From NCBI GenBank assembly GCA_963837955.1, contig CAWIPH010000002.1, forward strand, positions 10,966 through 74,965: a stretch of 64,000 nucleotides of DNA. Direction: 5' to 3'. The notes under the pieces are model-generated. The model saw only the letters and a program-made list of their open reading frames with translations. It was not told the DNA's origin and did not search any database. Positions 1,076 through 55,636 of this stretch are shown one piece after another (the first letter of the stretch is position 1; each line of letters begins with the position of its first letter). Source of the stretch: an uncultured Verrucomicrobiae bacterium (GTDB lineage Bacteria; Verrucomicrobiota; Verrucomicrobiia; Chthoniobacterales; JAFAMB01). The position numbers and the translations under genes are program-made.

Positions 1076-2109
1076 GTTGTTTACTCCTTTCCTCCGCGAT
1101 TAACTGAATGAGTTGATCGGATCAGACGGAGAGCTACGCGGCGGAGTAGCTATCCGCCCCCTGGCCGAAGACACACCATCCGCGCACGACGAAATCTACG
1201 AAATCACTCCTCCTGCCTGTAGATCGCGTCCCGGATCTTACATTCCGAATCGTGAGAACGTGCGGTTTCTCTGTAGGTTCGGCTTTTGTTTACGGCGATC
1301 TAAACCCACTAACTGAGGCGTCCCTCTGGCTCTTATCAGATAAGAGTCAGTGGTCTCAATTCTGAGTCCAATCGCCGCAGTAAAGAAATTTGAATCTGTT
1401 TTCCGGTTGAATCTCTCTCCGGATTCTAAATAGACGACAACTTTGAATCTCTTTTCCGGACTATTTTAGACTAGACAACAACGTTTGGAGCTTCGCTACC
1501 CTCCTGCAAAACCGCGAAGTATTCGGGCAAATTACTACTCTCCCGACAAACTATAACCCATATCAGAGGCGCTTCTCTTTGGCAACTAGAATTATGGATA
1601 TTGATACAAATCGCCTCCGCTAGGCGATGCTGCAGTTCTCACGTTTGGTTCAGCGGTATTCATGACCTCGATCGAAATCAAGCCAGACTCGCAAGCGTGG
1701 ATGGTCTGAGAGTGCAACCCAGCAGCTAGCGAAGAGCCTTAAACAGAAGGCAGCAAAGTTAACAAAAGATTCAGGCCCTCCGTTTCCTCCTTCTGTTCAA
1801 ACGATTTGCAAGGGTGGATTGGCCATTGGCCTCAAAACCAATTGAACAGAAGGTAACGGAGGAAACAGAGATGGGAAAACTGGCACAAAAAAGAGGAAGG
1901 GGATTATCGACTGCCAGGTCGATTACCACCGGATGCACTTCACGCCTTGATCGGTATCTATCCCTCGATACCGCCCGTTCCAGTTTGCGGGTCGAAATCT
2001 TCGCCGTAACGCTCGAAGCCCGGTGTGTCGGCAGCGAGTTCATGACCCGAGTTCGGGAGGCGGAATTCGCGTCTCTATGAGCACGATTGCCCCCGAAACA
2101 GCCTGGTGA

Positions 2110-10673: not shown

Positions 10674-10845
10674 GGGAGGGATCGCAGCCTGTCCGACATA
10701 GCTTTTGATGCATCACGCTCAACGACCGTGCGCTTTTGCGACGTCGGATCCTCGCGATCCGCGGCGCACGAGGATCCGACGTCGCGCTCGAGCATTCTGC
10801 AGCAGGCATCCAAAGGGCTATGTCGGACAGGCTGTGCGCCCTCCC
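10674..10845. repeat. 172-bp nested palindromic intergenic element
   Basis: The outer 29-bp inverted repeat is GGGAGGGATCGCAGCCTGTCCGACATAGC (10674-10702) against GCTATGTCGGACAGGCTGTGCGCCCTCCC (10817-10845). The inner perfect 17-bp inverted repeat is GCGACGTCGGATCCTCG (10738-10754) against CGAGGATCCGACGTCGC (10769-10785). The CCTGTCCGACATAGC core recurs at about 12238. Confidence 0.7.
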
Positions 10846-11387: not shown

Positions 11388-11921
11388 CTAGGCTGAGAAT
11401 TTCCATTTGCCTCTTTTCTTCCGATAACTCTTAGGGCGCGAAGGCAGAATCGCAACCTGATCGGCGTCTTTGTAGAAGATCTGCGATTTCATCGGGTTCT
11501 TCTGCCGAATAACCCGAATGACATGACCTTCCCTGATCGCCCGGGCCACGATCGCTCGACCAACTTCTCGCCAACCTTTCTCGGTAAAAAAAAATCGAAC
11601 CCGCCGATTTTCGATTTCCGGAAACTTCACGTTCATGCCGGCCAGCCCAGCCGTCCACGCACCACGAAGTGGGCCAGGAGACCCCGGAATGAACTCCTGA
11701 CGCGAGAAGCTGAATGAGCCTTTCTTGGCGTTTGCGAGGATGCGGTAAATCATGCTATGAGGATTTCTGCCGGCATCATAAGTGACGCGCGTTCGCCCCT
11801 CGACTTGCGAAAGAATCTTATCGGGATTAGAAGACACCTCTCCCAGAGTTTGATCGCCAATGTCAGCGCGCGTGAAAGCGGCAACTGTCTTTTGCGATCG
11901 GAAGAGGCTTCGTCGCGACAC
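11388..11921 (-). CDS. Hypothetical protein (no family recognised)
   Basis: This is a 177-aa ORF convergent with the DUF1801 gene. It contains an in-frame A9/T9 homopolymer (11586-11594, coding RFFFT). Its first ~15 nt overlap tandem-repeat unit 1. Coding status is uncertain. Confidence 0.35.
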   Translation of the reverse strand: MSRRSLFRSQKTVAAFTRADIGDQTLGEVSSNPDKILSQVEGRTRVTYDAGRNPHSMIYRILANAKKGSFSFSRQEFIPGSPGPLRGAWTAGLAGMNVKFPEIENRRVRFFFTEKGWREVGRAIVARAIREGHVIRVIRQKNPMKSQIFYKDADQVAILPSRPKSYRKKRGKWKFSA

Positions 11922-12405
11922 GTGCGCCGCGCGGGCGCAACCTATTGATAAACCGAGGAATCGAGGCCAAGGTGCGCTGGCCTTGCTCTACCTTGGGCAG
12001 TTCCCGGGAGCCGCAAGCGGCTCCCCTCCGATGTCGGGGATTCCGGCTCAACTTAGCAAACATACAATATTTTTGTTCTTCCTTGCGATCTCTGCGTTCT
12101 TTTACGGCCATTCTCCTCTCGGAAAAAGCTCCGTCGGGACACGTGCGTCGCCCGGGCGCAACCCATCGATAGACCGAGGAATCGAGGCCAATAGTGCGCT
12201 GATCATGCTCAGCCTTGGGTAGTTCCCGGGAGCCGCACCTGTCCGACATAGCCTCGCTCTTCTCAATATCGTGGCAACAGCACTGACGCGAAGTCGGAAG
12301 CGGCTCCCCTCCGATGTCGGGGATTATGCCTCGATGTAGCTAACATAAATTCTTTCTGTTCTCTCTTTGTGGTCTCTGTGTTCTTTTGCGGCTATTTCTT
12401 CTCTT
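11907..12405. repeat. Two tandem copies of a ~221-bp composite repeat, the second with a ~60-bp insertion
   Basis: Unit 1 starts GCTTCGTCGCGACACGTGCGCCGCGCGGGCGCAACC at 11907. Unit 2 starts GCTCCGTCGGGACACGTGCGTCGCCCGGGCGCAACC at 12128. Both contain ACCGAGGAATCGAGGCCAA, GTTCCCGGGAGCCGCA, AAGCGGCTCCCCTCCGATGTCGGGGATT and a T-rich CTTTGCG-like tail. Unit 2 carries an insert containing CCTGTCCGACATAGC. Confidence 0.7.
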
Positions 12406-24404: not shown

Positions 24405-24782
24405 GAAACTCACGCCAAGCGGCGAAAGAATCTCACGCAAAGACCCGGAGAATCTCACGCAAAGACGCAAAGACGCAAAGTTTTGAAAGGGAGTCCGGGC
24501 CGTCGAAAGCCACAGTGATTTGTGAGAAGTGATTGGTGATGGGGTGAAAATCCTCGCAAAGGTAGCGTAGCCTGATGCTCCGCCTCAGGAGATTGGCGCG
24601 CCTTGGATTCCTGAGGCGGAGCATCAGGCTACTCTGGCTTCGTTCCGCCCATAAAACGGCATCGACCGCATTGTCCGCTCAAACTTTGCGTCTTTGCGTC
24701 TTTGCGTGAGATTCGAATAAGGACCGGCGGGAGCCGATCCCTACCGGTCTTGGCGTGAGATTCTTCTTTGCGTGAGATCTCA
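24405..24782. repeat. ~380-bp nested palindrome built from 8-mer, 7-mer and TIR-like modules
   Basis: A perfect 31-bp inverted repeat pairs GAATCTCACGCAAAGACGCAAAGACGCAAAG (24450-24480) with CTTTGCGTCTTTGCGTCTTTGCGTGAGATTC (24684-24714). The central perfect hairpin pairs GTAGCCTGATGCTCCGCCTCAGGA (24567-24590) with TCCTGAGGCGGAGCATCAGGCTAC (24609-24632). GTGATTTGTGAGAAGTGATTGGTGA lies in between, and additional CTCACGC copies lie at both outer edges. Confidence 0.85.
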
Positions 24783-25226
24783 AATCTCGAAGGCCATGAC
24801 GGGACGCTCCCGGCTCTCATCGAGCATATCCTGGATCGATTTATTGCCGAACAGCTCCCGGAGCATTTCCCGGGCTTGCCGGATTACCGGTCGAAGGGGG
24901 CAGCGGAGCGGATCCGGACATCCGCATCGATCGGCCGATCTATCCAAAGCACAAGGCAGAGGAGCGATTTCGCCATCCAACAGTTCGATGATCTGCAACA
25001 TGGTCAATTCTGAGGCGCGTTTGCGCAGGGTATAGCCCCCGCCAACGCCACGTTTGCTTGAGAGAATGCCGTGGTTACGCAGGGCTAACAGAATTTGCTC
25101 GAGAAACTTAACCGGGATGTTACCTCGCTCGGAGAGCTCTTGAATCTGGTGAATTTTGCCGGGGGGATCTTGAGCGATAATGAATAAAGCGCGTAAAGCA
25201 TACTCCGCTTTCCGAGAAATCCGCAT
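24780..25226 (-). CDS. Rrf2-family transcriptional regulator (Cys-rich, possibly Fe-S binding)
   Basis: MRISRKAEYALRALFIIA...IPVKFLEQILLALRNHGILSSKRGVGGGYTL is the Rrf2 wHTH. It has a downstream Cys cluster, PCALDRSADRCGCPDPLRCP. Confidence 0.85.
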   Translation of the reverse strand: MRISRKAEYALRALFIIAQDPPGKIHQIQELSERGNIPVKFLEQILLALRNHGILSSKRGVGGGYTLRKRASELTMLQIIELLDGEIAPLPCALDRSADRCGCPDPLRCPLRPVIRQAREMLRELFGNKSIQDMLDESRERPVMAFEI

Positions 25227-25229
25227 AAT

Positions 25230-25520
25230 CTAATCTCTTCCGTTTTGAGCAGCCAAAGGTTCGCGGCCGTCAAATAGTCGCTCGTAGGTGGCAGCAATGA
25301 CCCGCCAATCGTAATTGGCGCTGACGCTGACGCGAGCCGAATCACTCATCCGCTGCCATCGAGCAGGCGACTTCCAAAGCCGCACGATTTCTGCTGCGAT
25401 CATTTCGCAATTCATCAATCGAGAAGAGTAAACCATTTTCTTGATCTAATACCAGATCAACATTGCCTGGAATACGGCTGGCGACAACCGGTAGACCAGA
25501 CGCAAGCGCCTCAAGTAGAA
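25230..25520 (-). pseudogene. C-terminal remnant of a GT4-type glycosyltransferase (5' part missing, internal frameshift)
   Basis: ORF 25342..25629 reads ...ILLEALASGLPVVASRIPGNVDLVLDQENGLLF, the GT-B C-domain EX7E region. ORF 25230..25436, in another frame, continues with ...IVRLWKSPARWQRMSDSARVSVSANYDWRVIAATYERLF. Upstream of about 25520 the reading frame is replaced by the GGGAACGCC repeat array. Confidence 0.6.
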
Positions 25521-25600
25521 TAACGCCGGGAACGCCGGGAACGCCGGGAACGCCGTTATCGCCGGGAACGCGAAAACCGTGAGAAGTGATTGGTAAGACG
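25519..25600. repeat. 9-bp tandem array (GGGAACGCC) plus heptamer module
   Basis: GGGAACGCC occurs 3 times (25528-25554), followed by GTTATCGCC and GGGAACGCG and then GTGAGAAGTGATTGGTAAG. Confidence 0.85.
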
Positions 25601-29940: not shown

Positions 29941-30136
29941 GCCCATACCTGTGGCGGGGGGAAATAGCAAATAGCAGATAGCAGGGGGGAGAGAACGCCG
30001 GGAGCGCACGGGAACGCCGGGAACGCCGGGAACGCCAAAGCCAAACACCAAACGCCAAACGCCAAACGCCGCGATATCGGCAGCTAATCGGCCGTTTAAC
30101 CTGTATTCCTTTGCGCCTTTGCGTCTTTGCGTGAGG
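29941..30136. repeat. Intergenic spacer composed almost entirely of concatenated short tandem-repeat modules
   Basis: AAATAGC/AGATAGC occurs 3 times (29962-29984) and G(G/A)GAACGCC-type 9-mers occur 5 times (29991-30036). CCAAAC(G/A) occurs 4 times (30041-30068) and CTTTGCG(N) 8-mers occur 3 times (30108-30131). The array ends in GTGAGG directly at the stop codon of the next gene. Confidence 0.9.
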
Positions 30137-32325: not shown

Positions 32326-33744
32326 TTGTGCGCTGCCGGAATTAATTTGGGTATCTCGCGTCACAGCAGAGCATCTAATAGCAAGAAAGAGCTACGAAAC
32401 GATGCCGAGATACTTGAACAAATCGCGACAAACATCCTGCGACTCATCTTCTCAACTGAATATCCGAAAAATATGGTAGGAAGCCCTTTGCTAATTGCAG
32501 AAAAAGCCCGGATTCGACTGCAGTCCACCGTCGCGTCGCTCCGCGAAGGCCGGCCGACGAATCTAAACGTGATTCGGCTGCCCGATCCGGCGGATGTCGT
32601 CATTACGCCCTGTGAAGTCAATGAGTTACATGGAACGGGAACTTTGCTGCTGAGAATATTTAAGGATTCTTCCTCGATCGTTTCATTGCGGACGAGCAAT
32701 TTTTACGATCTCCCGCAGAGTTTCGGCGCCGCAAACTTCTGCTTGCCACTGGCCCAAGCTTCGCGTGCCGAAGTGCTTTCCTGGGTCAAATGGTGGCTCA
32801 GCACGACTTCTGTGCGCCGCGCTGTCTGCCTGCCTTATCTCCCGGCAGATCCTATCGTCGGTATTACCGTCAAAGAACTGTTCAATGTCCCGTTATGTAC
32901 CTACATCATGGACGACAAGAATGTCTGTGCGCAGGGAATTCCCGATGCCCTGATGGAGGAGTTGCTCGCGAAATCGGATCTGCGCCTGGTGATCTCACCG
33001 GAAATGCGTGAGGCCTACGAAAAGAAGTACCGAATGAAGTTCTGTCTGATGCCTCCGCTCGTTTCCGATAAATTGGTTAAGAGGGAGGCGGCTCCGTACT
33101 TAAATGGAGTTAAGCCTGGGCGTTCCGTTCTGATAGGTAATATTTGGGGGCAGCGATGGCTAGATTTACTGCGGAGCACGATTCGCAACAGCGGTTATCA
33201 AGTTGATTGGTATTGCAACCAGAAAAACCCGAGGGCCCTGATTTTCGACCGCCATGAACTGGAAAAGGATGGCATTCGGCTGCTTGATCCGCTCTCGGAA
33301 TCAGAACTTCCGGCGGTTCTTGCGCAGTATGCAGTCGCCATTGTGCCGTCCGATACGCTCGACGGAAGAAGTGCACCGAGTGTGCAGGCAATAGCGGAGT
33401 TGAGCCTACCGAGCCGGATTCCCTTCGTCGTCGCAACGTCACATCTGCCAATTCTCGTAATTGGACATCCAGGAACTTCCGCCGCTCGCTTTGTGGAGCG
33501 CTTTAAGCTCGGTGAGGTTGTTCCCTATGATGCCGATGCTGTGCGAAGCGCTCTTGCACGCCTTTCGAAGCCCGAAACTCAAACACTCACCAGGAGCCGC
33601 GCGGCAGCGCTCAGTGCTAGTTTTTCAGCTCGCGGTTCTGCCGATTGGATTTGGCGTTCGTTGGAAGCGGGCGAAGCCTGCGACCTTCGGTACGAAAAGC
33701 TGATGCCCCCTTCCAAGAATGGGAATTCTCCACATCACCACTGA
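32326..33744 (+). CDS. Uncharacterised protein, paralog A of a triplicated family (possible GT-B-like fold)
   Basis: It shares blocks with 46722..48126 and 58815..60005. The blocks are EVNELHGTGTLLL, IMDDKNV, LSLPSRIPFVVATSHLPILVIGHPGTSAARFVERF and ADWIWRSLEAGEACDLRYEKLMP. The track start is a TTG, and the ATG at 32473 is the more likely start. Confidence 0.6.
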   Translation: MCAAGINLGISRHSRASNSKKELRNDAEILEQIATNILRLIFSTEYPKNMVGSPLLIAEKARIRLQSTVASLREGRPTNLNVIRLPDPADVVITPCEVNELHGTGTLLLRIFKDSSSIVSLRTSNFYDLPQSFGAANFCLPLAQASRAEVLSWVKWWLSTTSVRRAVCLPYLPADPIVGITVKELFNVPLCTYIMDDKNVCAQGIPDALMEELLAKSDLRLVISPEMREAYEKKYRMKFCLMPPLVSDKLVKREAAPYLNGVKPGRSVLIGNIWGQRWLDLLRSTIRNSGYQVDWYCNQKNPRALIFDRHELEKDGIRLLDPLSESELPAVLAQYAVAIVPSDTLDGRSAPSVQAIAELSLPSRIPFVVATSHLPILVIGHPGTSAARFVERFKLGEVVPYDADAVRSALARLSKPETQTLTRSRAAALSASFSARGSADWIWRSLEAGEACDLRYEKLMPPSKNGNSPHHH

Positions 33745-33749
33745 ATTTT

Positions 33750-34782
33750 ATGAGCGAATCCGTTGACACCCAGGCTATCTACGAGCTGGAAAGCATTCTT
33801 CAGTCATTGGTGGTGAATGATACAACGCTGCTCGACGCGCTGGCCCAAATGCTCAATGCCATGCAACAGATGCAGGCCAGGAGTGAACAGAGCCAGGACA
33901 AGCTGTGTGCAGAGCTCCAAGAACTCCGCGCGGAACTGCGCACGTTGACGCTGGAAGTAATAGAAAGAAAGGCAGATGCAGTATCCGGGCGACAACCGAT
34001 CGTCGTGACAAATGACGAGTTTGCCGCCCAGAATCCAGAGCTTGGTTTGCTTGAGTATTTGTATTCCTTCTTGACCGATACGAACGCAATCGATGTCGGC
34101 GCCAACATTGGAAAAGTATCAGAGCGGCTCTTGAAATGCGGCTACACTGTCTACGCATTCGAGCCATATAGCTCCTTCGTTTCGAGAATTGGTGGAAAGG
34201 CATAAGGCGAGTCAGAAATTTCATCCATTCAATTTGGCACTCGGGGCGGTCGACAGAACGATGGATCTCCACGTCGCCTCGGACTTGTCAGGACTTAGCA
34301 AATGGGACCCGACTCTTTTTCATAGCTTGATTGAGCGGCCGATGTTGCAAGATCTGCAGTTTACCAAGACTGTTCCCGTCGAAGTCCGCAGCCTGGAAAG
34401 CTTACGCCAAAATGGGGCGATTCCGCCTACGGCCGGCGTGCTAAAGATCGACACAGAAGGGTTCGATCTGGAGGTCATCCGCGGCATGGGAGAGGGTAAT
34501 TTTTCGGCCGTGATGGCTGAGTTTTGGGATCCGGCACATCCTTTTGGCGGCCAGGCCACAGGTGGACTGGAGGGTCTTGTCCGAGAAATGAAAGGCAGAG
34601 GGTATGCCTCGCATATAGTGATCTATCACTTAGACGAAGACTCGACGATCTCCTACTATTGTAACCGCTCCGAAACAGTCCCTAATTCATGGGGCAATGT
34701 AATTTTCTTCCGTGATCATGCCCTTTTCGCGAAAGCGCTTCGCTGGTGTGAAGAGGTGCTTGTAGCCACGTTACATAGGTGA
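33750..34782 (+). pseudogene. Coiled-coil + FkbM-type methyltransferase, split by a 1-nt frameshift at about 34188
   Basis: The N-terminal part is a coiled coil (LAQMLNAMQQMQARSEQSQDKLCAELQELRAELRTL) followed by AIDVGANIGKVSERLLKCGYTVYAFEPYSSFVSR and then a stop. The next frame continues LVERHKASQKFHPFNLALGA...VLKIDTEGFDLEVIRGMG. The intact paralog at 54578..55513 is collinear across this junction. Confidence 0.65.
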
Positions 34783-34888: not shown

Positions 34889-35638
34889 GTGAATCTCAAT
34901 AATTTAGTACTTTGTTGCGGAATGATCCGTTCAGCATCAACGCTGCAATATCAAGTCGTTGCTGACCTGATTGAGCGAAACGGTCTTGGCCAACGGATCG
35001 GGTTTGCGGATCGGGAAAGCCTATCCGAAATCGTGCAAAGGTTCGAAAGGGTGGAGGGTTTCGCGATAGTTAAGGCTCATGAGATCTTGCCACTAGTCGA
35101 TGCACTCATCGCGCAAGGTCGCATTCGCCTCTTTTACACCTTTCGCGACCTGCGCGCAGTTGCTCTTTCGGTAATGCGAAAGTGGGAGATTCCATTTGCA
35201 CAGGTGATTGGTCGAAACGCCTGGCTCGACACTGCAGTCCAATCTTCTAACCATTGGCTTTCCGTCCCCGGTGTCTGCGTAAGCCGCTATGAAGACATGG
35301 TGTTGAGACTCCCGACCGAAGTCACGAAATGGGCAGACGCTCTTGGCCTAAATCTTACTTCTACCCAGGCTGACGAATTAGCAGCCAAATATTCTATCGA
35401 GGCGCAGCGGGAGCGAGTTCGCCAGGCGCGTAACCCAAAGTCAACTCAAATGAGCGAATCGAACGATTTCTTTGATCCCAATAGTTTGCTGCATCACAAC
35501 CACATACTGGACGGGTCCTTAGACGGATGGAAATCAGGACTCGAGAAATGGCAGATTCGCCAAATTGAAGGTCGGTTCTCCAGCTGGTTGTTAGATCATG
35601 GTTATCAATTGAGCACTAGTGCTCCGGTACTGAGCTAG
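34889..35638 (+). CDS. Sulfotransferase-like P-loop protein (Stf0/Sulfotransfer_3-like)
   Basis: LCCGMIRSASTLQYQ resembles the 5'-PSB loop (RSGSTL). FYTFRDLRAVALSVMRK resembles the 3'-PB motif (RDPRdvavS). The later SRYEDMV is also consistent. Confidence 0.6.
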   Translation: MNLNNLVLCCGMIRSASTLQYQVVADLIERNGLGQRIGFADRESLSEIVQRFERVEGFAIVKAHEILPLVDALIAQGRIRLFYTFRDLRAVALSVMRKWEIPFAQVIGRNAWLDTAVQSSNHWLSVPGVCVSRYEDMVLRLPTEVTKWADALGLNLTSTQADELAAKYSIEAQRERVRQARNPKSTQMSESNDFFDPNSLLHHNHILDGSLDGWKSGLEKWQIRQIEGRFSSWLLDHGYQLSTSAPVLS

Positions 35639-35640
35639 CG

Positions 35641-36411
35641 ATGAGCCAACCCACACGGCCGATGCTGCTCGACGTCCAAAATTTGACGAAAACATTTGGA
35701 AACTTCAAAGCGGTTGACGATGTGTCGTTTTTCGTTCGCCCCGGGGAAGTAGTTGGTCTGCTTGGTCCCAGTGGCGCCGGCAAGACCACCACCATCCAGA
35801 TGATTCTTGGATTGATTTCGCCCAGTGCAGGCAGCGTCCGAATCTTTGGACAACTCTTTGAGAAGAACCGTCAACAGATCCTCGAAAAAGTCAGCTTCAC
35901 GGCGCCGTACGTCGCCTTCCCGATCCGGCTCACGGTGTTCGAAAACCTAATGGTTTTCGCCCGCATCTATGATGTTCGCGATCCTGAATCAAAAATCATG
36001 GAATTGCTGCGGATGTTCTCGATAGAGGACCTCAGGAACAAACCAGTTTCTCGTCTTTCCTCCGGCGAGAACACGCGAGTCGGACTTTGTAAGGCGTTGA
36101 TGAACGATCCGAAGTTACTGGTGATGGACGAGCCGACTGCTTACCTCGATCCTCAAGTAGCGCTTCAGGTAAAGAATATCCTCCTCGATTTGCAGCACCG
36201 TTACGGAACAACGATTCTCTACAGCTCCCACAACATGGCCGAGGTGGAAGAGATGTGCAGCCGGATCATTTTTCTTAGCCGTGGCCGGGTGCTTGCGAGC
36301 GGCAGCCCCATAACAGTTACCCAGAGCATCCTGAAAGAGAATCGTCGGGAACCGGCGCTTAAAGAAGTGTTTCTACACGTCGCGAGGAGACGGCTGAATG
36401 AAACTAAATAG
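35641..36411 (+). CDS. ABC transporter ATP-binding protein (ABC-2/DrrA-like)
   Basis: It has Walker A GPSGAGKTT, the signature LSSGENTRV, and Walker B LLVMDEPT. Its end overlaps the permease start. Confidence 0.9.
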   Translation: MSQPTRPMLLDVQNLTKTFGNFKAVDDVSFFVRPGEVVGLLGPSGAGKTTTIQMILGLISPSAGSVRIFGQLFEKNRQQILEKVSFTAPYVAFPIRLTVFENLMVFARIYDVRDPESKIMELLRMFSIEDLRNKPVSRLSSGENTRVGLCKALMNDPKLLVMDEPTAYLDPQVALQVKNILLDLQHRYGTTILYSSHNMAEVEEMCSRIIFLSRGRVLASGSPITVTQSILKENRREPALKEVFLHVARRRLNETK

Positions 36412-37612
36412 AATCAAGGCCATAATCTTCCGGCACTCTTGCGAAGGGAGACGCAATTTGAGCCGGGTCACCGAGATGGTGTATTGGCCGGTGCAGAACA
36501 TCGTTGTCTGGGGGTTTTTCACAATTTATCTTACCCGGGACAACCACCTGCAGCCGGGAATAGTTAGTTTTCTCTTAGGTGCGGCCATTCTGTGGGGGAT
36601 GTTCTATGCATTCCAGCGTGATCTGGCGGCGGGCTTCCTCGAAGAACTCTGGTCTCGAAACCTCATCAACTTATTCTCTACGCCGCTGAGCATCTCCGAA
36701 TATTTGACCGGCCTCATCATTGTCAATCTGGTCAGAGCCATGGTGGGAGTTCTGGCAGCGGGCCTAACTGCGTGGCTCTGCTTCGGCTATGAAATCTCCT
36801 CGAAACTGTTAGCAGTTATTCCCTTTATGTTGAGTTTGACTCTCTTCGCGCTCGCTGTCGGTGTGATAATTACCGGTCTGATTGTCAGGTATACCACCAA
36901 GATCCAGACGCTGGCCTGGAGCTTTGCTGGCTTACTGATGCCGTTCTCGTGCGTATTCTATCCTTTTAGCTCTCTTCCCAAATGTTTGCGTCCGGTCGCC
37001 TGGGCTCTTCCCACTACTCATGCTTTCGAAGGGATGAGGCAGGCAATCGCCGGAGGAGGCTTTGCGCTGCCGCATTTCGAGTGGGGGATTATGCTAAATG
37101 CGTTCTATCTGGTGTTGGCTGTCCTGGTGTTTCGCCGGATGTTTGAATCTGCACGTGCCCGAGGTCTGCTTAGTAAAGCTAGAGTAGGGAACGTTGGGAA
37201 CGCCGGGAACGCACGGGAACGCCGACAACGCCGACAACGCCGACAACGCCGACAACGCCGACAACGCCGACAACGCCGAGAACGCCGAGAACGCCGAGAA
37301 CGCACGGGAACGCCGGCTTGTCCGACGACCGTGTCCGACGAAGCTCCTCCGCTACATCGGCGACGTTCCAAGGATCAGCGAAGTCGGAAGCCTGCCGGAG
37401 TTTCAAACGACGGAGCGAAGTTGGAGAGCGCATTTTTCGGTAGTGCCAGAAATGTGTTGCCAATCGCGAGCTCCTCTGTAAAGAATCGCCTCTGCTGCGC
37501 AACCCTCCGCGCGCCGGCAATCGGTTTCTCGGGGAATCGGCTATGGACCAGTCCATCATATTGCACAGCCATGTGCCAAAGACGGCGGGCACCAGCGTTT
37601 CGGCGCATCTAG
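36398..37612 (+). CDS. ABC-2 type transporter permease; the conserved part ends at about 37180 and the ORF then reads through a 9-bp repeat array
   Basis: About 260 aa are polytopic membrane protein (...WALPTTHAFEGMRQAI...LVLAVLVFRRMFESARARGLLSKA). This is followed by GNVGNAGNARE(RRQ)x6(RRE)x3 and ~95 aa of Arg-rich, non-protein-like sequence. That tail overlaps the next gene start at 37543. Confidence 0.7.
   Translation: MKLNRIKAIIFRHSCEGRRNLSRVTEMVYWPVQNIVVWGFFTIYLTRDNHLQPGIVSFLLGAAILWGMFYAFQRDLAAGFLEELWSRNLINLFSTPLSISEYLTGLIIVNLVRAMVGVLAAGLTAWLCFGYEISSKLLAVIPFMLSLTLFALAVGVIITGLIVRYTTKIQTLAWSFAGLLMPFSCVFYPFSSLPKCLRPVAWALPTTHAFEGMRQAIAGGGFALPHFEWGIMLNAFYLVLAVLVFRRMFESARARGLLSKARVGNVGNAGNARERRQRRQRRQRRQRRQRRQRRERRERRERTGTPACPTTVSDEAPPLHRRRSKDQRSRKPAGVSNDGAKLESAFFGSARNVLPIASSSVKNRLCCATLRAPAIGFSGNRLWTSPSYCTAMCQRRRAPAFRRI
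37187..37314. repeat. 9-bp tandem repeat array
   Basis: The order is GGGAACGTT, GGGAACGCC, GGGAACGCAC, GGGAACGCC, GACAACGCC x6 (37224-37277), GAGAACGCC x2, GAGAACGCAC, GGGAACGCC. It belongs to the same unit family as 25528-25572 and 29991-30036. Confidence 0.95.
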
Positions 37613-38387
37613 CTGGGATATTCGGCAAGCTTCATTTGAGTCATTCCCATGAAGATCCCAATTTCATATTAACCCCGCCGATTCTCGAAACTCTTTTTGA
37701 GATCAACCCATTCTTGCGATCATTGTCCTCTCATCACCTTCGCATTTTTCCGAGAAAGATTCTTGGCCGGCCGGCCCATTACATCACTTTCCTGCGCCAT
37801 CCAACGAACACCCTTCTTTCTCGCCTAAGTTACGCGCAACAGAATTTTAAAAATCTGCCCGCGAAGGTAAAAGAATTTTGGCCGGACGAGACGCCTTGCC
37901 TTTCCTTGCGGACCCTCGCCCAATGGTATCTCGACAAATTGGGGGCGACCGAATGCTCTGGCCAGACTTGTTTTTTTTGCCACCCGAACATTTTGGCGAA
38001 AGATCAGTTTCGGATTTTGGTGCTGGTGTTGTTAACCCTGGTCTCGCATCGAACATGCTTAAGCATTTTCTCTTTGTGGGAATTGTTGAAGACATGTCCA
38101 TCAGTCTCGACATTCTGGACGCTCGGCTGCGAGGGCTGGGAATCAGGCTGGGTCGGGAAGGTTTTTTGGGGAGGTTTCGGCACCAGAACCGGAGCCACCG
38201 GAGAAATCTGGCTTGGCTTTGCCAGGAGGACGAGATTGGTCGACGCGTCCTGGCCTGCAACGCCAGTGACCGTCTCCTCTATTCGGAATTCCGCAAAAGA
38301 CTATGGGCTAGCCACTGCGAAATGTTGAGCGGCCAAGACTTCAAGTATCGGTTTTGCCCATACGAAATCGCAAACAACTTGTACTGA
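37543..38387 (+). pseudogene. Sulfotransferase family-2-like protein, frameshifted at a T8 homopolymer (37971-37978)
   Basis: The N-terminal part reads HSHVPKTAGTSVSAHL...YITFLRHPTNTLLSRL (PKTAGTS and (F/L)LR.P motifs) up to GQTCFF. ORF 37878..38387 continues PPEHFGERS...LKHFLFVGIVEDMSISLDILDARLRGLGI. The intact paralog at 55637..56527 is collinear (PQTRFFCSPES...LERFLFVGVTEQIEKSVKLL). A T9 tract would restore a single frame. Confidence 0.65.
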
Positions 38388-38397
38388 TCCGAGGATA

Positions 38398-38715
38398 AAA
38401 TCTCACGCAAAGTCGCAAAGGCGCAAAGAATGGGAGGCGGAATCCAGAATGTTTGGCACAGAAGTAAACGGAGATAACGGTTCGGCTGAGCCGTCGGGCG
38501 GCTCCACTCGAAGCCAATCTATCTCCCCGGTCACCTTCAATTCAAAATTCGTCTTTGCGCGAGGCTTTAACGGATTTCCGTACTGCGCGTTCCCTCGCAC
38601 TTCTCACCAATCACCTCTCACCAATCACATTGGCTTCGACCGGAGCTCAGCCGCGCCTTTGCGTCTTTGCGTGAGATTTTCTAAGTCCGTTCTCCTTTGC
38701 GCCTTTGCGTGAGGC
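38398..38715. repeat. Modular inverted-repeat element filling the intergenic spacer
   Basis: AAATCTCACGCAAAGTCGCAAAGGCGCAAAG (38398-38428) faces CCTTTGCGTCTTTGCGTGAGATTT (38655-38678) and CCTTTGCGCCTTTGCGTGAGGC (38694-38715). The heptamer module CACTTCTCACCAATCACCTCTCACCAATCAC lies at 38598-38628. Confidence 0.85.
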
Positions 38716-39805: not shown

Positions 39806-40128
39806 TTGTCAGCATCCTGAATCGCGGATATCTCTCCGGCACGCCTTGGAGGATTTTGAAAACAGGCCCTAGTATCCCCTGGGTTTAACAGTTCAACCAG
39901 GCACTGGCCGAAAACGACTTTATGATCGAAGAAATCAAGGATCGAGATCAAATCCTAGCCATAATCCTACGCGCAGATATTACGGCAAGGGCGTTGATTT
40001 TTTTGGGCTGAGTTTTTTGATATTAGCCTTTCGACCGGATTCGGCGATAGCGTAGCCGCGAGCGTTCCCGGCGTTTGCCTTTAGATCTTCTCAATTGTAG
40101 ATCCGGGGATACTTCCTTCGAAAAACGT

Positions 40129-46721: not shown

Positions 46722-48126
46722 ATGGAGATACTTTCTAGAATCGCTAAGTTACCCGCCGCTCAGAAGCTTGGTGAATTGATCGACCGCTTTGTCGCGCACT
46801 TCCTGCGCCGAATCGACGATCGGTTGCGCCGAATCGATGATCGGCTGAATCGAATCGATGATCGGCTGCGGCCAATTGACGATCGACAGGATGCGGTAGA
46901 AAGGCTGGTCGTTTCGACTTTGTTGCCGCCCAAAGAGGCAGGTTATGACGTCATAGTGACTGCGAGCGAGGTGAGTGAGAAGCACGGTGCGGGTCTCTTG
47001 TTACGTCGAGCCTTCGATACTTGTCCTCAGATTCTCTCGGTTCGTAGCGCTGATGATTTCAAGGGTGAAAAATCATTCGGAGAGGAAAGCTTCCTGGTGT
47101 CTCACGGGTGGTCATCTCGTCCGAATTGGTTCGCCCATACGCTTCAACAATTGAGAGGAAGAGTGGCGCGTCGGGTGATTTGTGTACCCTATCAGCTGGA
47201 TGAGTTAAAAACCGCGATCACCCTGAAAGAAATCTATGGAGCTCCTATTTGTCTCTGGTTGATGGATGATAAGAGCGTCACGAATCATCAGATTCCATAC
47301 GAGCTGATGAGAGAGTTTCTGGGAAAGTGTTCGTTGCGGTTGACGACCCACGCCGAGCTGCGAGACGCGTATGAACGCGCATTTGGGTTCAAATTCTACC
47401 TTTTTCCGGCTGTGGTCTCCGAAAACTTGATCGTGAAAGAAATCAGAACTCCGCGAGGGGAATTTATGGCGGAAAAGAGAGGGGCGATCTTTGGGAGCAT
47501 TTCGAGCCGGAAATTGGCAGATAAGCTCATGCAGACGATCAAGGTGTCGGGACTGCAGTGTGACTGGTTCGAGAACAATCACCTGCCGAGCTTTGAATTG
47601 AGCGATAGTGAGTTGACGGAAGCAGGGGTCACTCGCCAAGGCATTATTCCGGAGGAAGAGCTTCCCGGCCTGCTCGGACGGTATCCTTACCTTATTGTGC
47701 CCACAGGGGACTTGGATCCCGATGATCCGGAAACGCCCTTGGCTCGGTTGAACTTGCCGGGTCGGATCCTTTTTGCGATGGCGACCTCAAACACACCTTT
47801 CATTGTGCTGGGGCACCCGGATACGCCCGCTGCTCGCTTCGTTAGAGCATTTTCAAGTCGGCTTGCGGTCAGACTATGAGCCCGACGGTTTTTCCGCTGC
47901 GGTCCGGAGCATTGTCGAAGAGAAGACTCAATATGAGATGCGATCGAATGCGGTTGGCGTTGCGCCACTCCTTAGCAGCAAGGGCGCCAGCGACTGGGTC
48001 TTCCGTTCCCTGGAAATGGGCAAGGCTTGCGACGATCGCTTCGAGCGACTAATGCCTTCAGTGGTTGGGGATAAATATTTTTCCCCGTCGATTGAAGGCT
48101 ATTTTTCGCCGGCGATCGGTGGATGA
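46722..48126 (+). pseudogene. Paralog B of the triplicated uncharacterised family, with a 1-nt frameshift at about 47844
   Basis: ORF 46722..47879 carries EVSEKHGAGLLLR, LMDDKSV and LNLPGRILFAMATSNTPFIVLGHPDTPAARFV, then goes out of frame. ORF 47773..48126 continues EHFQVGLRSDYEPDG...ASDWVFRSLEMGKACDDRFERLMP. It is collinear with paralogs A and C. Confidence 0.65.
46806..46889 (+). repeat. 21-bp x4 in-frame tandem repeat encoding heptads RRIDDRL/RRIDDRL/NRIDDRL/RPIDDRQ
   Basis: The four units are CGCCGAATCGACGATCGGTTG, CGCCGAATCGATGATCGGCTG, AATCGAATCGATGATCGGCTG and CGGCCAATTGACGATCGACAG. Confidence 0.95.
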
Positions 48127-49645: not shown

Positions 49646-51160
49646 ATGTCCCGAAAAGTAACTCTTTTGCTTGTTTTGGCTTTTGCATTTCTTGCCACGC
49701 TTCAGTGGCTGCCTTTGCTGCAGGCAAAGTGGTCCATTCGGAACGACCACGCGTTTATCCAGTTAATGAGTGCTTCCGGAAGAATATCAATGAGTGATTT
49801 CTGGCAGCAGCTCAACCCTCCTGATCAGGCCCTTGGCGGATTAGTAAACCGCCCGATTTACTTCATCGTGCATGATGTTTGGATGCTGGTGATTGGGAAA
49901 AACCTCATCCCGTGGCAAAGCGCGAAAGTTCTAACGTTTGGAGCTGAAATCGGTCTCTTTTTTTTATTCTTTGTGCTTTCGACGGATCTCACAGCAGCCG
50001 TAATACTCGGCTGCTTTGTCGCTTTCCAACCGGATTGGGGAGATATTGTGGCGCTTGCTAACTCCGAACTGTTTGCACTCTTCGGTCTTGTTTTGTATGC
50101 GATCGGCAATCTTGGTTTTCTGCAAAACCGCGGTGCAAGCTCCCGGCAGCAAAGCCAGCCGAAAAATCTTACCAACTATCTCTTGGTCGCTATTGGGGGA
50201 ATCGTCGCCGTCGCTTCGAAGGAGAATTTCTGTTTCACGATCCTCTTTACTTCCGTTTGCTTCCTCGCCTTCTCAATCGTCGTATCGAGGAAGTTTGAAT
50301 TAGCCTGGGCTCAACTTGTTCCTATAGGTACGGCCATGGTTTTTTGTGGTCTGATCATCCATGGAATCCGAGAGAATGCGGGCCAGGCTCTTTACGGCCA
50401 GACCTTCGACCTTTTCGCAATTTGTACTACTGCCTGCGCGCGATTCGTAACGGGTGGTGCGTCGGGCTGGGTGCCGGCAATTCTTTTTGCTGGTTACTCT
50501 ATTTGGTTTCTAAAGGATCCTAATCGGGAGCGGTTATCAGCAGCTCTTTTTGAGCTTCTCCTCCTGGGAGTCGTGTTACTAAATTTTGGCTTTTACACCG
50601 GTGTTCCACTGACTGGACGTTACCTCTTCCCTGAGAACTTAGTTCCGGCTTTTGCTATTCTCCCGGTGCTGCAGGAAGTACGACGGCGGTGCACCCGCAT
50701 CCAGAAGATCTTATCCTATTGTCTGTTGTGGGTCTTTGTTGTTCCCACTAGCATCGCTGGTTTCAAAGCGAACATGCAATGGGCGACCAATTACCGGGAC
50801 GAGACAAAGCGCTTCGATAGAAAACTGAAAAAGGTCGTTGCTGTCGTGTCCAAAGAGCCCGGAAAACCACTTCTCTTCGACAGCTATTCGATTGGCGACG
50901 TCGAACCGCTCGCTTCCGTGGACATTTATCTGACCTCCTACGGCGTTCAGAATCCGAGGTTCGCTCGACTTAATTATTCAGAGGATCAGTTTCAGGATCC
51001 ACACCAAAAATTCTTGGTCCGCTATACGGAAAGTCAGATTGGTCCAAGCGCCACTTTCAGACCATTTCCAGAAATTGGGACGAAGGATTTTTTTAGAATT
51101 AGCTTTTCGTCTCCTAAAGATGAGGCAGATGTGATCGCCAATTTTTACGGCCAAGAATAG
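49646..51160 (+). CDS. Large polytopic membrane protein with a soluble C-terminal domain (GT-C-like glycosyltransferase or polymerase candidate)
   Basis: About 10 predicted TM helices across ~380 aa are followed by a ~120-aa hydrophilic tail. No motif was confidently recognised. The locus also encodes a polyprenol-P-sugar synthase-type GT2. The start is set at MSRKVTLLLVLAF (49646). Confidence 0.5.
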   Translation: MSRKVTLLLVLAFAFLATLQWLPLLQAKWSIRNDHAFIQLMSASGRISMSDFWQQLNPPDQALGGLVNRPIYFIVHDVWMLVIGKNLIPWQSAKVLTFGAEIGLFFLFFVLSTDLTAAVILGCFVAFQPDWGDIVALANSELFALFGLVLYAIGNLGFLQNRGASSRQQSQPKNLTNYLLVAIGGIVAVASKENFCFTILFTSVCFLAFSIVVSRKFELAWAQLVPIGTAMVFCGLIIHGIRENAGQALYGQTFDLFAICTTACARFVTGGASGWVPAILFAGYSIWFLKDPNRERLSAALFELLLLGVVLLNFGFYTGVPLTGRYLFPENLVPAFAILPVLQEVRRRCTRIQKILSYCLLWVFVVPTSIAGFKANMQWATNYRDETKRFDRKLKKVVAVVSKEPGKPLLFDSYSIGDVEPLASVDIYLTSYGVQNPRFARLNYSEDQFQDPHQKFLVRYTESQIGPSATFRPFPEIGTKDFFRISFSSPKDEADVIANFYGQE

Positions 51161-52297: not shown

Positions 52298-53095
52298 ATG
52301 AAAAGTCTTCTCGAGCTACCAAAGCGACAGTATCTGATCCGGCAATACCTAGCTCGTCAAATCGGCCAGCGTTACAAGGGTACAGCTTTAGGGGTTCTGT
52401 GGTCTCTAGCTTCGCCGATCTTCATGCTGCTGGTCTATACGTTTGTGTTCGCTACGGTCATGCATGCTCATTTTGGAATTTCAAAGTCCGAGACAACGCT
52501 GGACTATGGCTTGGCGCTTTTCTGTGGGTTGAACCTTTTCAATTTCTGCGGCGATGTCATCATGCGCTCTCCCTCACTAATTCTTAGTCAGCCCAACCTG
52601 GTTAAGAAAGTTGTGTTCCCGTTGGAGATTCTTCCACTCATCAGCACGCTGGATGCCTTGGTCCATTGTGTCATTGCCTTCATTCCCCTGTTCCTAGCTC
52701 TGGCGATCTTGCACGGTACTGTGCCTTGGTCTTTTGTTTTTTTGGCCGCCTTTCTGATTCCTGCGGCGCTGATTGCGCTCGGATTAAGTCTGTTACTTTC
52801 CGCCATCGGAGTCTTTATCCGCGACGTGCAAAACATGATGACTCCAGCAGTAACTGTCCTCATGTTCGGAAGCGCTGTCTTTTATCCCCTCGCGACCGTG
52901 CCCGACTGGATCCGGCCATGGTTTCAGTTAAATCCCTTAGCCCTGATCATTGAAAACTCCCGAAGAACTCTCATTTGGGGATTGCCCTTGGGGATACCGC
53001 AGCTTGCTTTCGCCAGCTTGTTGGGATTGGTTCTTGTTATAGTGGGATTTTTGTTTTTTGAGAAGTCCAAGCCGGCTTTTGCCGATGTGATGTAA
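52298..53095 (+). CDS. wzm: Polysaccharide ABC-2 exporter permease (Wzm/TagG type)
   Basis: YLIRQYLARQIGQRYKGTALGVLWSLASPIFMLLVYTFVF is the canonical Wzm N-terminal block. The protein has 6 TM segments and is 265 aa. Confidence 0.85.
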   Translation: MKSLLELPKRQYLIRQYLARQIGQRYKGTALGVLWSLASPIFMLLVYTFVFATVMHAHFGISKSETTLDYGLALFCGLNLFNFCGDVIMRSPSLILSQPNLVKKVVFPLEILPLISTLDALVHCVIAFIPLFLALAILHGTVPWSFVFLAAFLIPAALIALGLSLLLSAIGVFIRDVQNMMTPAVTVLMFGSAVFYPLATVPDWIRPWFQLNPLALIIENSRRTLIWGLPLGIPQLAFASLLGLVLVIVGFLFFEKSKPAFADVM

Positions 53096-53101
53096 GCCGC
53101 T

Positions 53102-54538
53102 GTGAGTAGCCTTTCTGACCTTTCTATTTGCGAGACGCCGCCGGTTGCTGCGCAGGAGACGTTGCTCAGTCTCGATCAAATCTCTAAGTCCTATCGGTTG
53201 TGGAACCGTCCTTATGACCGGCTCTTCTATGGGATCTGGAACCAGGTTCCTGGGTATGCTCCGGATCTGATCAGACGTCTGGCAAATCGTCAAAAGGCTG
53301 GACTCGGAAAGGAAGTTTTCGCCCTCGCTGAAGTGACTCTGTCGATTCGGAAAGGTGAAAGCGTTGGGATTATCGGCCGCAACGGCAGCGGAAAGAGTAC
53401 CCTCTTGCAGCTTATTGCCGGGGTCCTTCAGCCTACTTCGGGACGAATTCGGGTGGATGCGAAGCGCGTAACAGCTTTGCTTGAATTGGGCAGTGGGTTT
53501 GATCCGAATTTCACGGGGCGGCAAAACGTTCTGCTGCACGGTTCACTGCTTGGTCTCACCGAGGAAGAGAATCACGCGCGGCTTAGTGAGGTCCTTGATT
53601 TCTCTGAGATCGGCGATTATTTCGATCGCCCGGTCAAGACCTATAGCAGTGGCATGATAGTTCGACTAGCGTTTGCGTCTTCCATCACCGTCCGAGCCGA
53701 TTTATTGATCGTGGACGAGGCGCTAGCGGTCGGCGACATCTTCTTTCAGCAGAAGTGCTTTCACAAGATTCGGGAGTTGGTCAAGGCCGGAGTGACCATC
53801 CTGCTCGTCTCGCATGACTTGCGCTCGATCAGCGAGTTTTGTGATGAGACGCTTTTGCTGGACCACGGTCGGGTCATCTTCTTCGGAGACTCTAACGTGG
53901 CGATTGACCGCTACTACGGCATGACAAAATCGTTCATTTTGGCCGCGCCGGGCGGAGCACGGAAACAGGCTCCGGCCTCGAGCCTATCATCTGTCGAGGA
54001 ACCTCCCCCGGTGCTGATGGAGTCGATTCCCCGGCCAAAGGTGGTTCCATATGAAGACGCCGTTGCGACGTTCCTTCATTTCGCTCTCCTGAATCATGAA
54101 GGAAAGCCTACGAACCTGTTTCGACAAGGCGAATGGCTGACGTTGCTCTTTGACGTCGAAGTGTTGGCTGACGTCGAAAACTTAAGCGCAGGGGTTGTCT
54201 TTCGGGATGACCGGAGAACGTTTTTGCACAGCAAGTACGAATTTCAGACTGATCTAAGGAGTCTGCGCATTGGCAAAAAGGGAGATCATTTTAGAGTCAG
54301 TTATGAGGTTCGTCTCGATGTCGCGCCGGGCCACTATACCCTATCGCTTGACCTGATATCTGTGCCCGCCGAGGCAATAGCTGGCGGAAAATTGGCCTTT
54401 CTCGATTACGAACGCCATTTCCGTCGCGTTTGTCATGCTGGAGATCTTGTTGCGATCACCGTGGGCTTTAATCCTAGCCGTGAAGGCGCGGAATTCTCTC
54501 ACCTCGGGCTCTTCGACCTGCCCACCCGTTTCGACTGA
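53102..54538 (+). CDS. wzt: Polysaccharide ABC exporter ATPase (Wzt/TagH type) with a ~220-aa C-terminal extension
   Basis: It has Walker A GRNGSGKSTL, the signature YSSGMIVRLAFA, and Walker B LLIVDEALAVGD. Residues ~255-478 form an extra beta-rich domain (...FLHFALLNHEGKPTNLFRQGEWLTLLFDVEVLADV...HYTLSLDLISV...), positioned like the Wzt C-terminal glycan-binding domain. Confidence 0.85.
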   Translation: MSSLSDLSICETPPVAAQETLLSLDQISKSYRLWNRPYDRLFYGIWNQVPGYAPDLIRRLANRQKAGLGKEVFALAEVTLSIRKGESVGIIGRNGSGKSTLLQLIAGVLQPTSGRIRVDAKRVTALLELGSGFDPNFTGRQNVLLHGSLLGLTEEENHARLSEVLDFSEIGDYFDRPVKTYSSGMIVRLAFASSITVRADLLIVDEALAVGDIFFQQKCFHKIRELVKAGVTILLVSHDLRSISEFCDETLLLDHGRVIFFGDSNVAIDRYYGMTKSFILAAPGGARKQAPASSLSSVEEPPPVLMESIPRPKVVPYEDAVATFLHFALLNHEGKPTNLFRQGEWLTLLFDVEVLADVENLSAGVVFRDDRRTFLHSKYEFQTDLRSLRIGKKGDHFRVSYEVRLDVAPGHYTLSLDLISVPAEAIAGGKLAFLDYERHFRRVCHAGDLVAITVGFNPSREGAEFSHLGLFDLPTRFD

Positions 54539-54577: not shown

Positions 54578-55513
54578 CTACCTCGATAATGAGGCCGCCC
54601 GGAAGCGCGGCAGTTCTCCCTGGCACCAGTGAAATGCTTTCAAGAACAATTGATAGTCGTGAAAGAAAAGGATTTTTCCCCAACCCACTTTTGACGCACT
54701 CGTCAGATTTGTTGCCATCCGAACGAACTCTTCCCCTTCGACCCGAAAGATGATGATATGCCAGTAATACTCTCGGTCGCGCATTTCGCCAATGACGTCG
54801 GATGAGTTAAAAGGCCGTTGGATCTTGCTATTGCGGTCTTCTCCCTGGAATTCGGCTTGAACGACGGCTGGACGAACTGAACCGAGTCCCCGCACGACCT
54901 CAAGCTCGAGTCCTTTGGCGTCAATCTTCAGAAAATCGATGCTCCCCGGGACCGTTCCGGACGCGGCCAGGGCTGCGAGGGTCGTTGCCGTCGAGGAGTT
55001 CGATTCGGGGGATCCAAGCGCTAAATTGAAGATTCTAACACGTGGTCGACCAGCCATTCGAGCGTTCAATCTTTCGAAGGTTTCGGGTACTGCTTCAAAG
55101 CAAAACACCTCATAGCCGATATCCAGAACTGCCTCTGCAAAGTCACCCGAGTTGGCGCCGACGTCGAAAAGCACACGGTTCGGAAGGAAGTTGTAAAGGA
55201 ATCCAGCCAAATCAGATTCTGGCTCACTTTGCGAGAACATATCGGTCCACAACCATGGTTCGGCCCGACCAGCAGACCAAGCCATAACCGATTTGAGGCG
55301 GTTCACATGTTCAGAAAGTCGCCGAATTTGGTCCTTGGTTCTAATGCCCGTCTGTTCAGTTCTACCAAGGCCCGATTCCAGCCGCCCCAAATGGTTTTCC
55401 AGCCGTCCCAAATGGCTGATTGTAACTTCCAGTTTGTGGCGGACGTCATCTATCCCCAAACCGCTTTGGGCTCTTCGGGAAATTGAGTCTCTAATTTTGT
55501 TTACGATCGACAT
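54578..55513 (-). CDS. Coiled-coil + FkbM-type methyltransferase (intact paralog)
   Basis: A GGAGG motif lies 9 nt upstream of the ATG at 55513. The N-terminal heptad region is HLGRLENHLGRLESGLGRTEQ...IRRLSEHVNRLKS. The FkbM blocks are LFDVGANSGDFAEAVLDIGYEVFCFEAVPETFERL...FLKIDAKGLELEVVRGLG. Confidence 0.7.
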   Translation of the reverse strand: MSIVNKIRDSISRRAQSGLGIDDVRHKLEVTISHLGRLENHLGRLESGLGRTEQTGIRTKDQIRRLSEHVNRLKSVMAWSAGRAEPWLWTDMFSQSEPESDLAGFLYNFLPNRVLFDVGANSGDFAEAVLDIGYEVFCFEAVPETFERLNARMAGRPRVRIFNLALGSPESNSSTATTLAALAASGTVPGSIDFLKIDAKGLELEVVRGLGSVRPAVVQAEFQGEDRNSKIQRPFNSSDVIGEMRDREYYWHIIIFRVEGEEFVRMATNLTSASKVGWGKILFFHDYQLFLKAFHWCQGELPRFRAASLSR

Positions 55514-55636
55514 GAAAGGTTCACCTCCTAAACCCGTAACAGCCTCATTAGAAGCTGATCCGGCCCAGTATGTCAAAATCCTGCCTCCTCGGCGGCTGAA
55601 GCTCTGGCCTGTTTCATGCTAGGGAGGTAGGGAACC

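Follow-up and report, generated by a model that had tools for sequence, protein, structure and literature searches.

An ABC-2 permease open reading frame that runs into a 9-bp tandem array is most probably an ordinary permease gene carrying a one-base frameshift

Introduction

Why should a transporter permease end in a run of arginine-rich triplets that continues into the neighboring gene? The question is raised by an open reading frame (ORF) on contig CAWIPH010000002.1 of an uncultured Verrucomicrobiae bacterium, from which a stretch of 64,000 nucleotides (nt), hereafter the window, was analyzed. The ORF, located at 36398..37612 (+), encodes 404 amino acids (aa). An ABC-2 type transporter permease makes up the first ~260 residues, and the late part translates as ...FESARARGLLSKARVGNVGNAGNARE(RRQ)6(RRE)..., also given as ...RGLLSKARVGNVGNAGNARE(RRQ)6(RRE).... 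A sequence-only reading of this DNA had described the ORF as running in-frame through a 9-bp tandem array at 37187..37314 into the next gene. The sequence is as described: the ORF ends 70 nt within the next gene, which starts at 37543. Two origins had been offered for the fusion, namely the removal of the native stop by insertion or expansion of the repeat, and a cryptic frameshift just upstream. Comparison with homologous proteins and orthologous loci speaks strongly for the second. Behind the 404-aa ORF there is very probably a normal 262-aa ABC-2 permease gene, shifted by one base so that the reading continues into intergenic repeats.

Where does the permease gene end?

The permease gene itself occupies 36398..37187 (+) and matches Pfam ABC2_membrane (PF01061) at 5.6e-16, with a score of 59.1 bits over residues 20-216 (gathering cut-off 26.9). 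Its partner, an ABC transporter ATPase at 35641..36411 (+), matches ABC_tran at 6.8e-30 over profile positions 2-137 of 137, and the 3' end of the ATPase gene overlaps the permease start. A search of 5.8 billion proteins returned 353 permease homologues, and lengths and coverage were counted on the best 120. Exactly 262 aa was the length of 100 of these 120 proteins, the best being 77-79% identical to the window's permease. The 404-aa query was covered to a typical extent of 64%, and none of the best 120 covered more than 65% of it. The C-termini of ten homologues were inspected and found to read ...FESARSRGLLVKLE or a near variant, following the pattern ...RGLLVK[LM][ET]; the longer proteins among those inspected carry their extra length at the N-terminus only.

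This family C-terminus is present in the window, one frame away. Frame +1 was found to translate as ...LVKLE*, closed by an intact TAG at 37185..37187 (+) that lies 1 base out of frame with the upstream ORF. Stops had been reported in both other frames near 37170-37186, and they are indeed there: the TAG at 37185 in frame +1, and TAG at 37171, TAA at 37174 and TAG at 37180 in frame +2. Alignment of the permease C-terminus with orthologues, the check recommended by the sequence-only reading, located the ancestral stop at 37185-37187. In eight orthologous loci (L001-L008), the final codons read ...CGN GGN CTN YTG GTA AAA YTG GAR TAG, and the window reads CGA GGT CTG CTTA GTA AAG CTA GAG TAG at the same place. 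The codon alignment thus places a single extra base at 37169..37171 (+), where four bases, CTTA, stand against a single Leu codon (CTG or TTG) in the orthologues, as expected of the cryptic frameshift that had been suspected. The extra base falls in the fifth-from-last codon, and deletion of any one base of 37169-37171 gives a 262-aa permease with the family C-terminus and stop. No evidence contradicting the frameshift itself was encountered.

Two consequences follow for the array. The native stop is present but out of frame, and therefore it was not lost. The array begins 16 nt downstream of the frameshift, at the last base of the native TAG, and is therefore intergenic. None of the eight orthologous loci inspected was found to carry a comparable array after the permease, and in the three closest (L001-L003) the ATG of the next gene follows within ~15 nt of the permease stop, array-free. 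The fusion arises in two steps. The extra base at 37169-37171 of the assembled sequence shifts the frame, so that the native TAG at 37185-37187 is missed; the 128-nt stop-free array and a chance stop-free stretch then keep the shifted frame open for ~147 codons, to 37612.

What keeps the shifted frame open?

The array at 37187..37314 (+) consists of 14 units of the form (GGG/GAC/GAG)AACGCC plus 2 extra C, 128 nt in total. Tandem Repeats Finder delimited it as 37187..37316, with period 9, 14.2 copies and a score of 123-153. The units are, in order, GGGAACGTT, GGGAACGCC, GGGAACGCA+C, GGGAACGCC and GACAACGCC x6, followed by GAGAACGCC x2, GAGAACGCA+C and GGGAACGCC. The unit list given previously is broadly right, except that GAGAACGCC forms two perfect units and not three, and that two units are 10 nt long owing to an extra C. 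It had also been held that the array never breaks the frame since its unit is 9 bp. No stop is met, but the two 10-nt units shift the register twice; the shifted frame stays open because the array units are free of stop codons in all six frames, and in five of these frames an ORF crosses the array.

The array is followed at 37313..37440 (+) by a degenerate long form of a ~52-nt module, recognized by alignment with soil metagenome contigs L042, L068 and L127. The module has the sequence GGCTTGYCCGACGAAGC...CCGGAGTTTCRAACGACGGGCGAAGTCGGGGA, in full GGCTTGCCCGACGAAGCTTCCGGAGTTTCGAACGACGGGCGAAGTCGGGGA. Its predicted RNA fold (-29.7 kcal/mol, z = -1.47) is not better than that of shuffled sequence, and the window copy gave z = +0.72. 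No Rfam family was detected anywhere in the window and no terminator-like site in 37000-37700. Only one promoter-like site was detected, 140 nt past the array on its downstream side.

The part of the ORF past the native stop, 37188..37612 (+), amounts with the shifted codons from ~37170 to ~147 aa that match no homologue. When the 98 residues after the array were compared with 1.84 billion cluster representatives, no true homologue was found, only three weak matches. Two of these are to repeat proteins that have no relation to the tail. The third is to P0139, which shows 79% identity over 28 residues and no relation elsewhere; P0139 is an ORF in another genome, read through the same long-form DNA repeat module. 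By these comparisons, the tail is a by-product of the frameshift and not conserved coding sequence or an evolved protein extension. One observation sits less comfortably with this picture. The ~99 stop-free codons after the array somewhat exceed chance (a rough estimate gives ~2% at this G+C), and the only account offered for this long open stretch is its repeat-derived composition.

Could the fusion have arisen in another way?

If insertion or expansion of the 9-bp repeat had destroyed the native stop and added a poly-Arg tail to the permease, the array would be expected to start where the gene ends, as it does. Moreover, a copy of the same family lies directly beside a truncated GT4 gene, which shows that arrays can be found where genes are disrupted. 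On the other side, the last five native codons and the TAG stand unaltered at 37170-37187, merely out of frame, and a chance match to LVKLE* in frame +1 is very unlikely, given five residues and a stop at exactly residue 262. The proposal that the repeat removed the stop is therefore abandoned as extremely improbable. Orthologues with a comparable natural extension had been named as the evidence that would tell against a lost stop; no such extension occurs among the 120 best homologues, and it is the intact TAG that tells against it instead. Similarly, there is hardly any likelihood that the 404-aa ORF is the true functional product of a lineage that evolved a basic C-terminal extension. All 404 codons are open, and the dicodon score remains positive some way past the stop, but its 50-codon windows still include permease and array there. 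No homologue among the best 120 has the extension, the ancestral stop is still in place, and the tail, which overlaps the start of the next gene by those 70 nt, is translated repeat DNA that is intergenic everywhere else surveyed.

A third possibility is programmed +1 ribosomal frameshifting, in which a slip from CUU to UUA at CUU AGU A, helped by a Shine-Dalgarno (SD)-like GAGGU 3 nt upstream, would yield the 262-aa protein from the shifted gene, and normal decoding would yield a long-tailed isoform. In prfB, an SD-like element and a 3-nt spacer precede CUU UGA C, and in Ty1 the ribosome slips to UUA at CUU AGG C. The window's GAGGU-CUG-CUU-AGU is reminiscent of the prfB layout of SD-like element, 3-nt spacer and CUU, although its GAGGU is largely set by the conserved Arg-Gly codons. 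All eight orthologous loci are in frame, and the ten homologue proteins inspected end normally. AGU, the codon in the A site, is not a stop, and at 7.8 per 1000 codons it is not rare either, since seven or more sense codons are used less often; moreover, two other in-frame instances of CUU-AGU were found in genes of the window. In addition, two other genes of the operon are frameshifted without such a motif, which points to a general cause. Programmed frameshifting is accordingly considered very improbable.

Is the extra base a mutation or a consensus error?

The frameshifted permease resembles other frameshifted genes or pseudogenes with a read-through ORF, such as those labeled 'frameshifted' by the NCBI Prokaryotic Genome Annotation Pipeline (PGAP): a single-base indel lies close to the 3' end, comparison with orthologues recovers the original frame and stop, and neighboring genes are likewise affected. 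The FkbM-type methyltransferase gene of the same operon, at 33645..34782 (+), is split by a 1-nt insertion (the single A in AGA A TTG) at ~34182-34190 into ORFs 33645..34205 and 34189..34782. Before repair, Methyltransf_21 was matched over positions 48-138 in the downstream ORF only (34.4 bits), and after joining it was matched continuously over positions 1-138 (50.2 bits). The gene next after the permease, a sulfotransferase-like gene at 37543..38387 (+), is split by a 1-nt deletion at ~38006-38010, adjoining a GATC site, into overlapping ORFs 37543..38328 and 37878..38387. It contains an HxPKTAGTS motif and gave no match in the Pfam search. Its homologues, hypothetical soil-metagenome proteins of ~300 aa, span both halves; about 15 residues of the query used to find them had been wrongly repaired, which leaves the coverage of both halves unaffected. 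The repaired protein is 70% identical and aligned unbroken across the junction. For the downstream gene fragment of the window there is also an identical protein entry, P0128. A T8 run at 37971-37978 was considered as the lesion of this gene and rejected, as homologue alignment showed the run to be in frame. No frameshift was found in the ~30 other window genes checked, all of which showed full-length domain coverage. Gene integrity was judged here by continuity of Pfam domains; codon-usage frame-switch detection missed even the known cases, and the dicodon track is qualitative only.

Within the frameshift reading, a real mutation, that is, a recent inactivating or tail-adding change in a decaying operon, is given about an even chance, and a consensus error of the assembly a somewhat smaller one. 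None of the three indels lies in a long homopolymer, and an A9 run (11586-11594) and both T8 runs of the window (that at 37971-37978 and another at 49958-49965) are in continuous reading frames. The three indels fall within 3.9 kb of one operon, for which a rough estimate gives a probability of ~0.01 under a uniform rate. True gene decay is also seen nearby, in the GT4 remnant at 25230-25520. These points favor a real mutation. Consistent with an error, on the other hand, the damage consists of indels only, with zero in-frame stops, and the permease departs from its family at 0 of 52 near-invariant columns and at 4 of 79 columns conserved at 95%, which its homologues do to a similar extent. 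P0128 bears no protein name from its source and comes from a contig of 5,040,315 bp in NCBI and ENA, as would be expected of an unannotated long-read MAG chromosome. Genes are known to be split by indel errors that long-read consensus sequences contain (PMC9262707). Unlike those error splits, the indels here lie outside long homopolymers and are clustered in one operon, so that the usual error model accounts for them only in part, and true decay of the operon is just as plausible.

Some further observations concern the integrity and quality of genes in the window. The GT4 glycosyltransferase remnant is a C-terminal fragment at 25230-25520 (-), reading ...EALASGLPVVASRIPG...YDWRVIAATYERL..., with an internal frame change at ~25400-25440. 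It begins exactly at an array edge at 25522, and the array, read over 25520-25570, gives VPGVPGVPGV fused to the remnant. Compared with the permease and most other genes, dicodon scores are weak for the sulfotransferase, the ABC ATPase and the sulfotransferase-like gene (34889-36411, 37543-38387), which could reflect foreign origin or lower sequence quality. A 332-aa ORF at 54578-55576 (-) matches the FkbM methyltransferase profile at positions 99-151 of 173 only, and could be a divergent or another damaged gene. Tandem repeats of 21 nt occur at 46803-46885 (4.0 copies) in ORF 46722..47879 (+) and at 55376-55415 (1.9 copies) in ORF 54578..55576 (-); they are probably coding repeats, since the unit is a multiple of 3. 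Finally, a second, intact ABC-2 permease and an ATPase with a Wzt_C domain, at 52298-54538 (+), constitute a polysaccharide exporter of the Wzm/Wzt type, so that the glycan region has another exporter besides the frameshifted one.

To what kind of repeat does the array belong?

The array is not an isolated feature. Allowing at most 1 mismatch, AACGCCNNNAACGCC was found 17 times in the window against 0.43 expected, with a maximum of 2 in 100 shuffles; the occurrence of the family is not due to chance. The 9-mer family occupies four sites in the 64 kb. Besides the permease array, these are a second array at 25522..25571 (+), which abuts the GT4 remnant, a third at 29993..30036 (+), upstream of an asnB-like gene and flanked by AAATAGC and AACGCCA heptamer arrays, and a two-unit vestige in inverted orientation at 40061..40075 (-). 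The copies previously reported at about 25520 in the GT4 gene and ahead of the asnB-like gene are thus both present.

A scan of metagenomes with a degenerate four-unit pattern matched more than 120 contigs. Most of the matches were set aside: they have GCC, GCG or GGC units and high G+C, look unrelated and are probably coding. About 24 soil contigs with window-like G+C (0.53-0.58) carry (GGG/GAC/GAG/GGT/GAT)AACGCC arrays, and beside these arrays, as in the window, stand companion repeats, namely GGTGATT heptamers, gtgagaggtgattggtgag, and AACGCCA and AATAGCC heptamers. In L042, L068 and L127, the ~52-nt module is always embedded in 9-mer arrays, and in L068 and L127 it forms inverted pairs. 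The permease array is one copy of a dispersed, hypervariable composite intergenic family made up of 9-mer arrays, the ~52-nt module and heptamer arrays. Such repeats are characteristic of a soil-bacterial lineage that resembles Verrucomicrobiota by its nearest homologues, which are named Chthoniobacterales and Verrucomicrobiota, and the arrays often begin directly at the stop of the preceding gene. The 21-mer at the junction of gene and array had no match in the metagenome contigs, and the best homologue of the permease is 79% identical. Exact searches of the contig index with the window's ATPase, its DegT aminotransferase, the 404-aa ORF, P0128 and P0139 gave no match either, and thus no copy of the locus from the same species was found. 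A literature search found no relevant account of described tandem-repeat families in Verrucomicrobia.

The arrays of the window and 24 related contigs, 37 in number, were surveyed for their relation to genes. Only 1 of the 37, the window's permease array, was found to be crossed by an ORF that extends for 80 codons or more to either side, and this crossing is an exception because of the frameshift. Seven arrays, in L037, L100, L118 (two), L155, L077 and the window, start at most 10 nt from the stop of an ORF that is 150 or more codons long, and all seven are co-oriented with their gene. In L118, inverted arrays at 1652-1759 (+) and 2313-2375 (-) lie between convergent genes, and each starts at most 7 nt from the stop of its gene. 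L066, L096, L068 and L127 have in common a near-identical flank of ~125 nt, beyond which unit types, copy number and module presence differ completely.

Is the family already known under another name? Simple-sequence contingency loci are characteristic of phase-variable genes in Neisseria, Haemophilus and Campylobacter. As in those loci, a hypervariable tandem repeat stands here beside genes of surface polysaccharide synthesis. However, the array is not a contingency locus, because its 9-nt unit cannot switch the frame and it lies outside the native ORF; the frameshift, for its part, lies outside any repeat. Closer parallels are offered by the short tandemly repeated repetitive (STRR) sequences of cyanobacteria, heptamer arrays found in Nostoc, Anabaena and Calothrix. 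In both cases, very short lineage-specific tandem units are scattered in intergenic DNA, with several unit families adjoining; here the units are shorter than 10 nt, lie in non-coding DNA and recur in many dispersed copies in the window and the ~24 related soil contigs. The term STRR is the one used in PMC2670836. The present arrays differ in having a 9-nt unit with 7- and 8-nt companions in a Verrucomicrobiota-like host, rather than the heptamers of heterocystous cyanobacteria, and in being combined with a unique ~52-nt module, often as inverted pairs. The family therefore resembles STRR sequences but is not a member of them. With the REP/BIME mosaic elements of enterobacteria and pseudomonads (PMC3733652), it shares composite intergenic mosaics at gene ends, a small set of recurring short modules and frequent inverted pairs. 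No GTAG- or CGTC-headed palindromic unit was seen in the present family, and the module hairpin does not exceed shuffled sequence (z = -1.47). The likeness to REP/BIME mosaics is only loose, and the family is probably not one of them.

Do the arrays have a role?

The arrays would grow and shrink by replication slippage or unequal recombination, without a protein-coding role, and neutral DNA driven by slippage is the default inference for the family. There is a small but appreciable chance that the 9-mer arrays, the ~52-nt module and the heptamers together form an undescribed functional element of the Verrucomicrobiota-like soil lineage and are not neutral junk. The co-orientation of all seven stop-abutting arrays with their genes, and the retention of an array at an orthologous site despite full turnover of its content, would fit a role at transcript 3' ends. 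If the element is functional, such a role might lie, for example, in stabilization, in termination or in serving as a platform to which proteins bind; the pattern would also be compatible with spread through an enzyme of its own.

Several sequences in the vicinity of the arrays are recorded here in their own right. The ~125-nt near-invariant stretch of L066, L096, L068 and L127 lies upstream of a minus-strand gene, reads TCGTCTSAATATAGTCTGACATAAGAGTTTAG...CGCTCAAGAGCGCCCGCCATGGAGTACTAC...GAATATATTCCCG and is a possible regulatory leader. In several soil contigs, among them L057 (two copies) and L066, arrays are followed by a conserved sequence of ~60 nt, cctgtccgccatagtcaggatgacgaaggaggaagggtcttgggaacttagcccaggc, which could be a further mosaic module or a small RNA. 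At 29960-30135, upstream of the asnB-like gene, four short tandem repeats stand abreast, namely AAATAGC heptamers, GGGAACGCC 9-mers, AACGCCA heptamers and CTTTGCGY octamers; this order of repeat types recurs in L037, L078 and L112. Octamer arrays ACGCAAAG and CTTTGCGT occur as inverted pairs at 24440-24790 and 38395-38715. Between the arrays of the first pair lies a long hairpin, almost perfect, at 24566-24644 (gtagcctgatgctccgcctcagga...tcctgaggcggagcatcaggctac), and between those of the second lie TCACCAATCAC repeats. A unit resembling a miniature inverted-repeat transposable element (MITE) is present at 10686-10835, with inverted ends CCTGTCCGACATAGC ~110 nt apart. A third copy of this end motif (12238-12253) and two long direct repeats are found in the non-coding region 11920-12400, and the motif ctgtccgacatagtc of the MITE-like unit also adjoins 9-mer arrays in L037, L100 and L111.

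What does the finding mean?

Annotators would be mistaken to count the 404-aa "permease with a poly-Arg tail" as a new protein architecture; the fusion is best described as ordinary read-through after a frameshift. Stop-free arrays that begin at stop codons form a trap, in that any upstream indel, real or artefactual, will produce a long and plausible ORF extension. Other instances of this trap are P0139 and, at 25520-25570, the VPGVPG... reading. The repeat family is a modest curiosity that may merit a genome-wide census, and function is conjecture only at this point. Overall, the three 1-nt indels in a single operon are a sign either that the consensus is locally unreliable or that a module for sulfation and export is decaying, and they matter for inferring the glycan chemistry of the organism.

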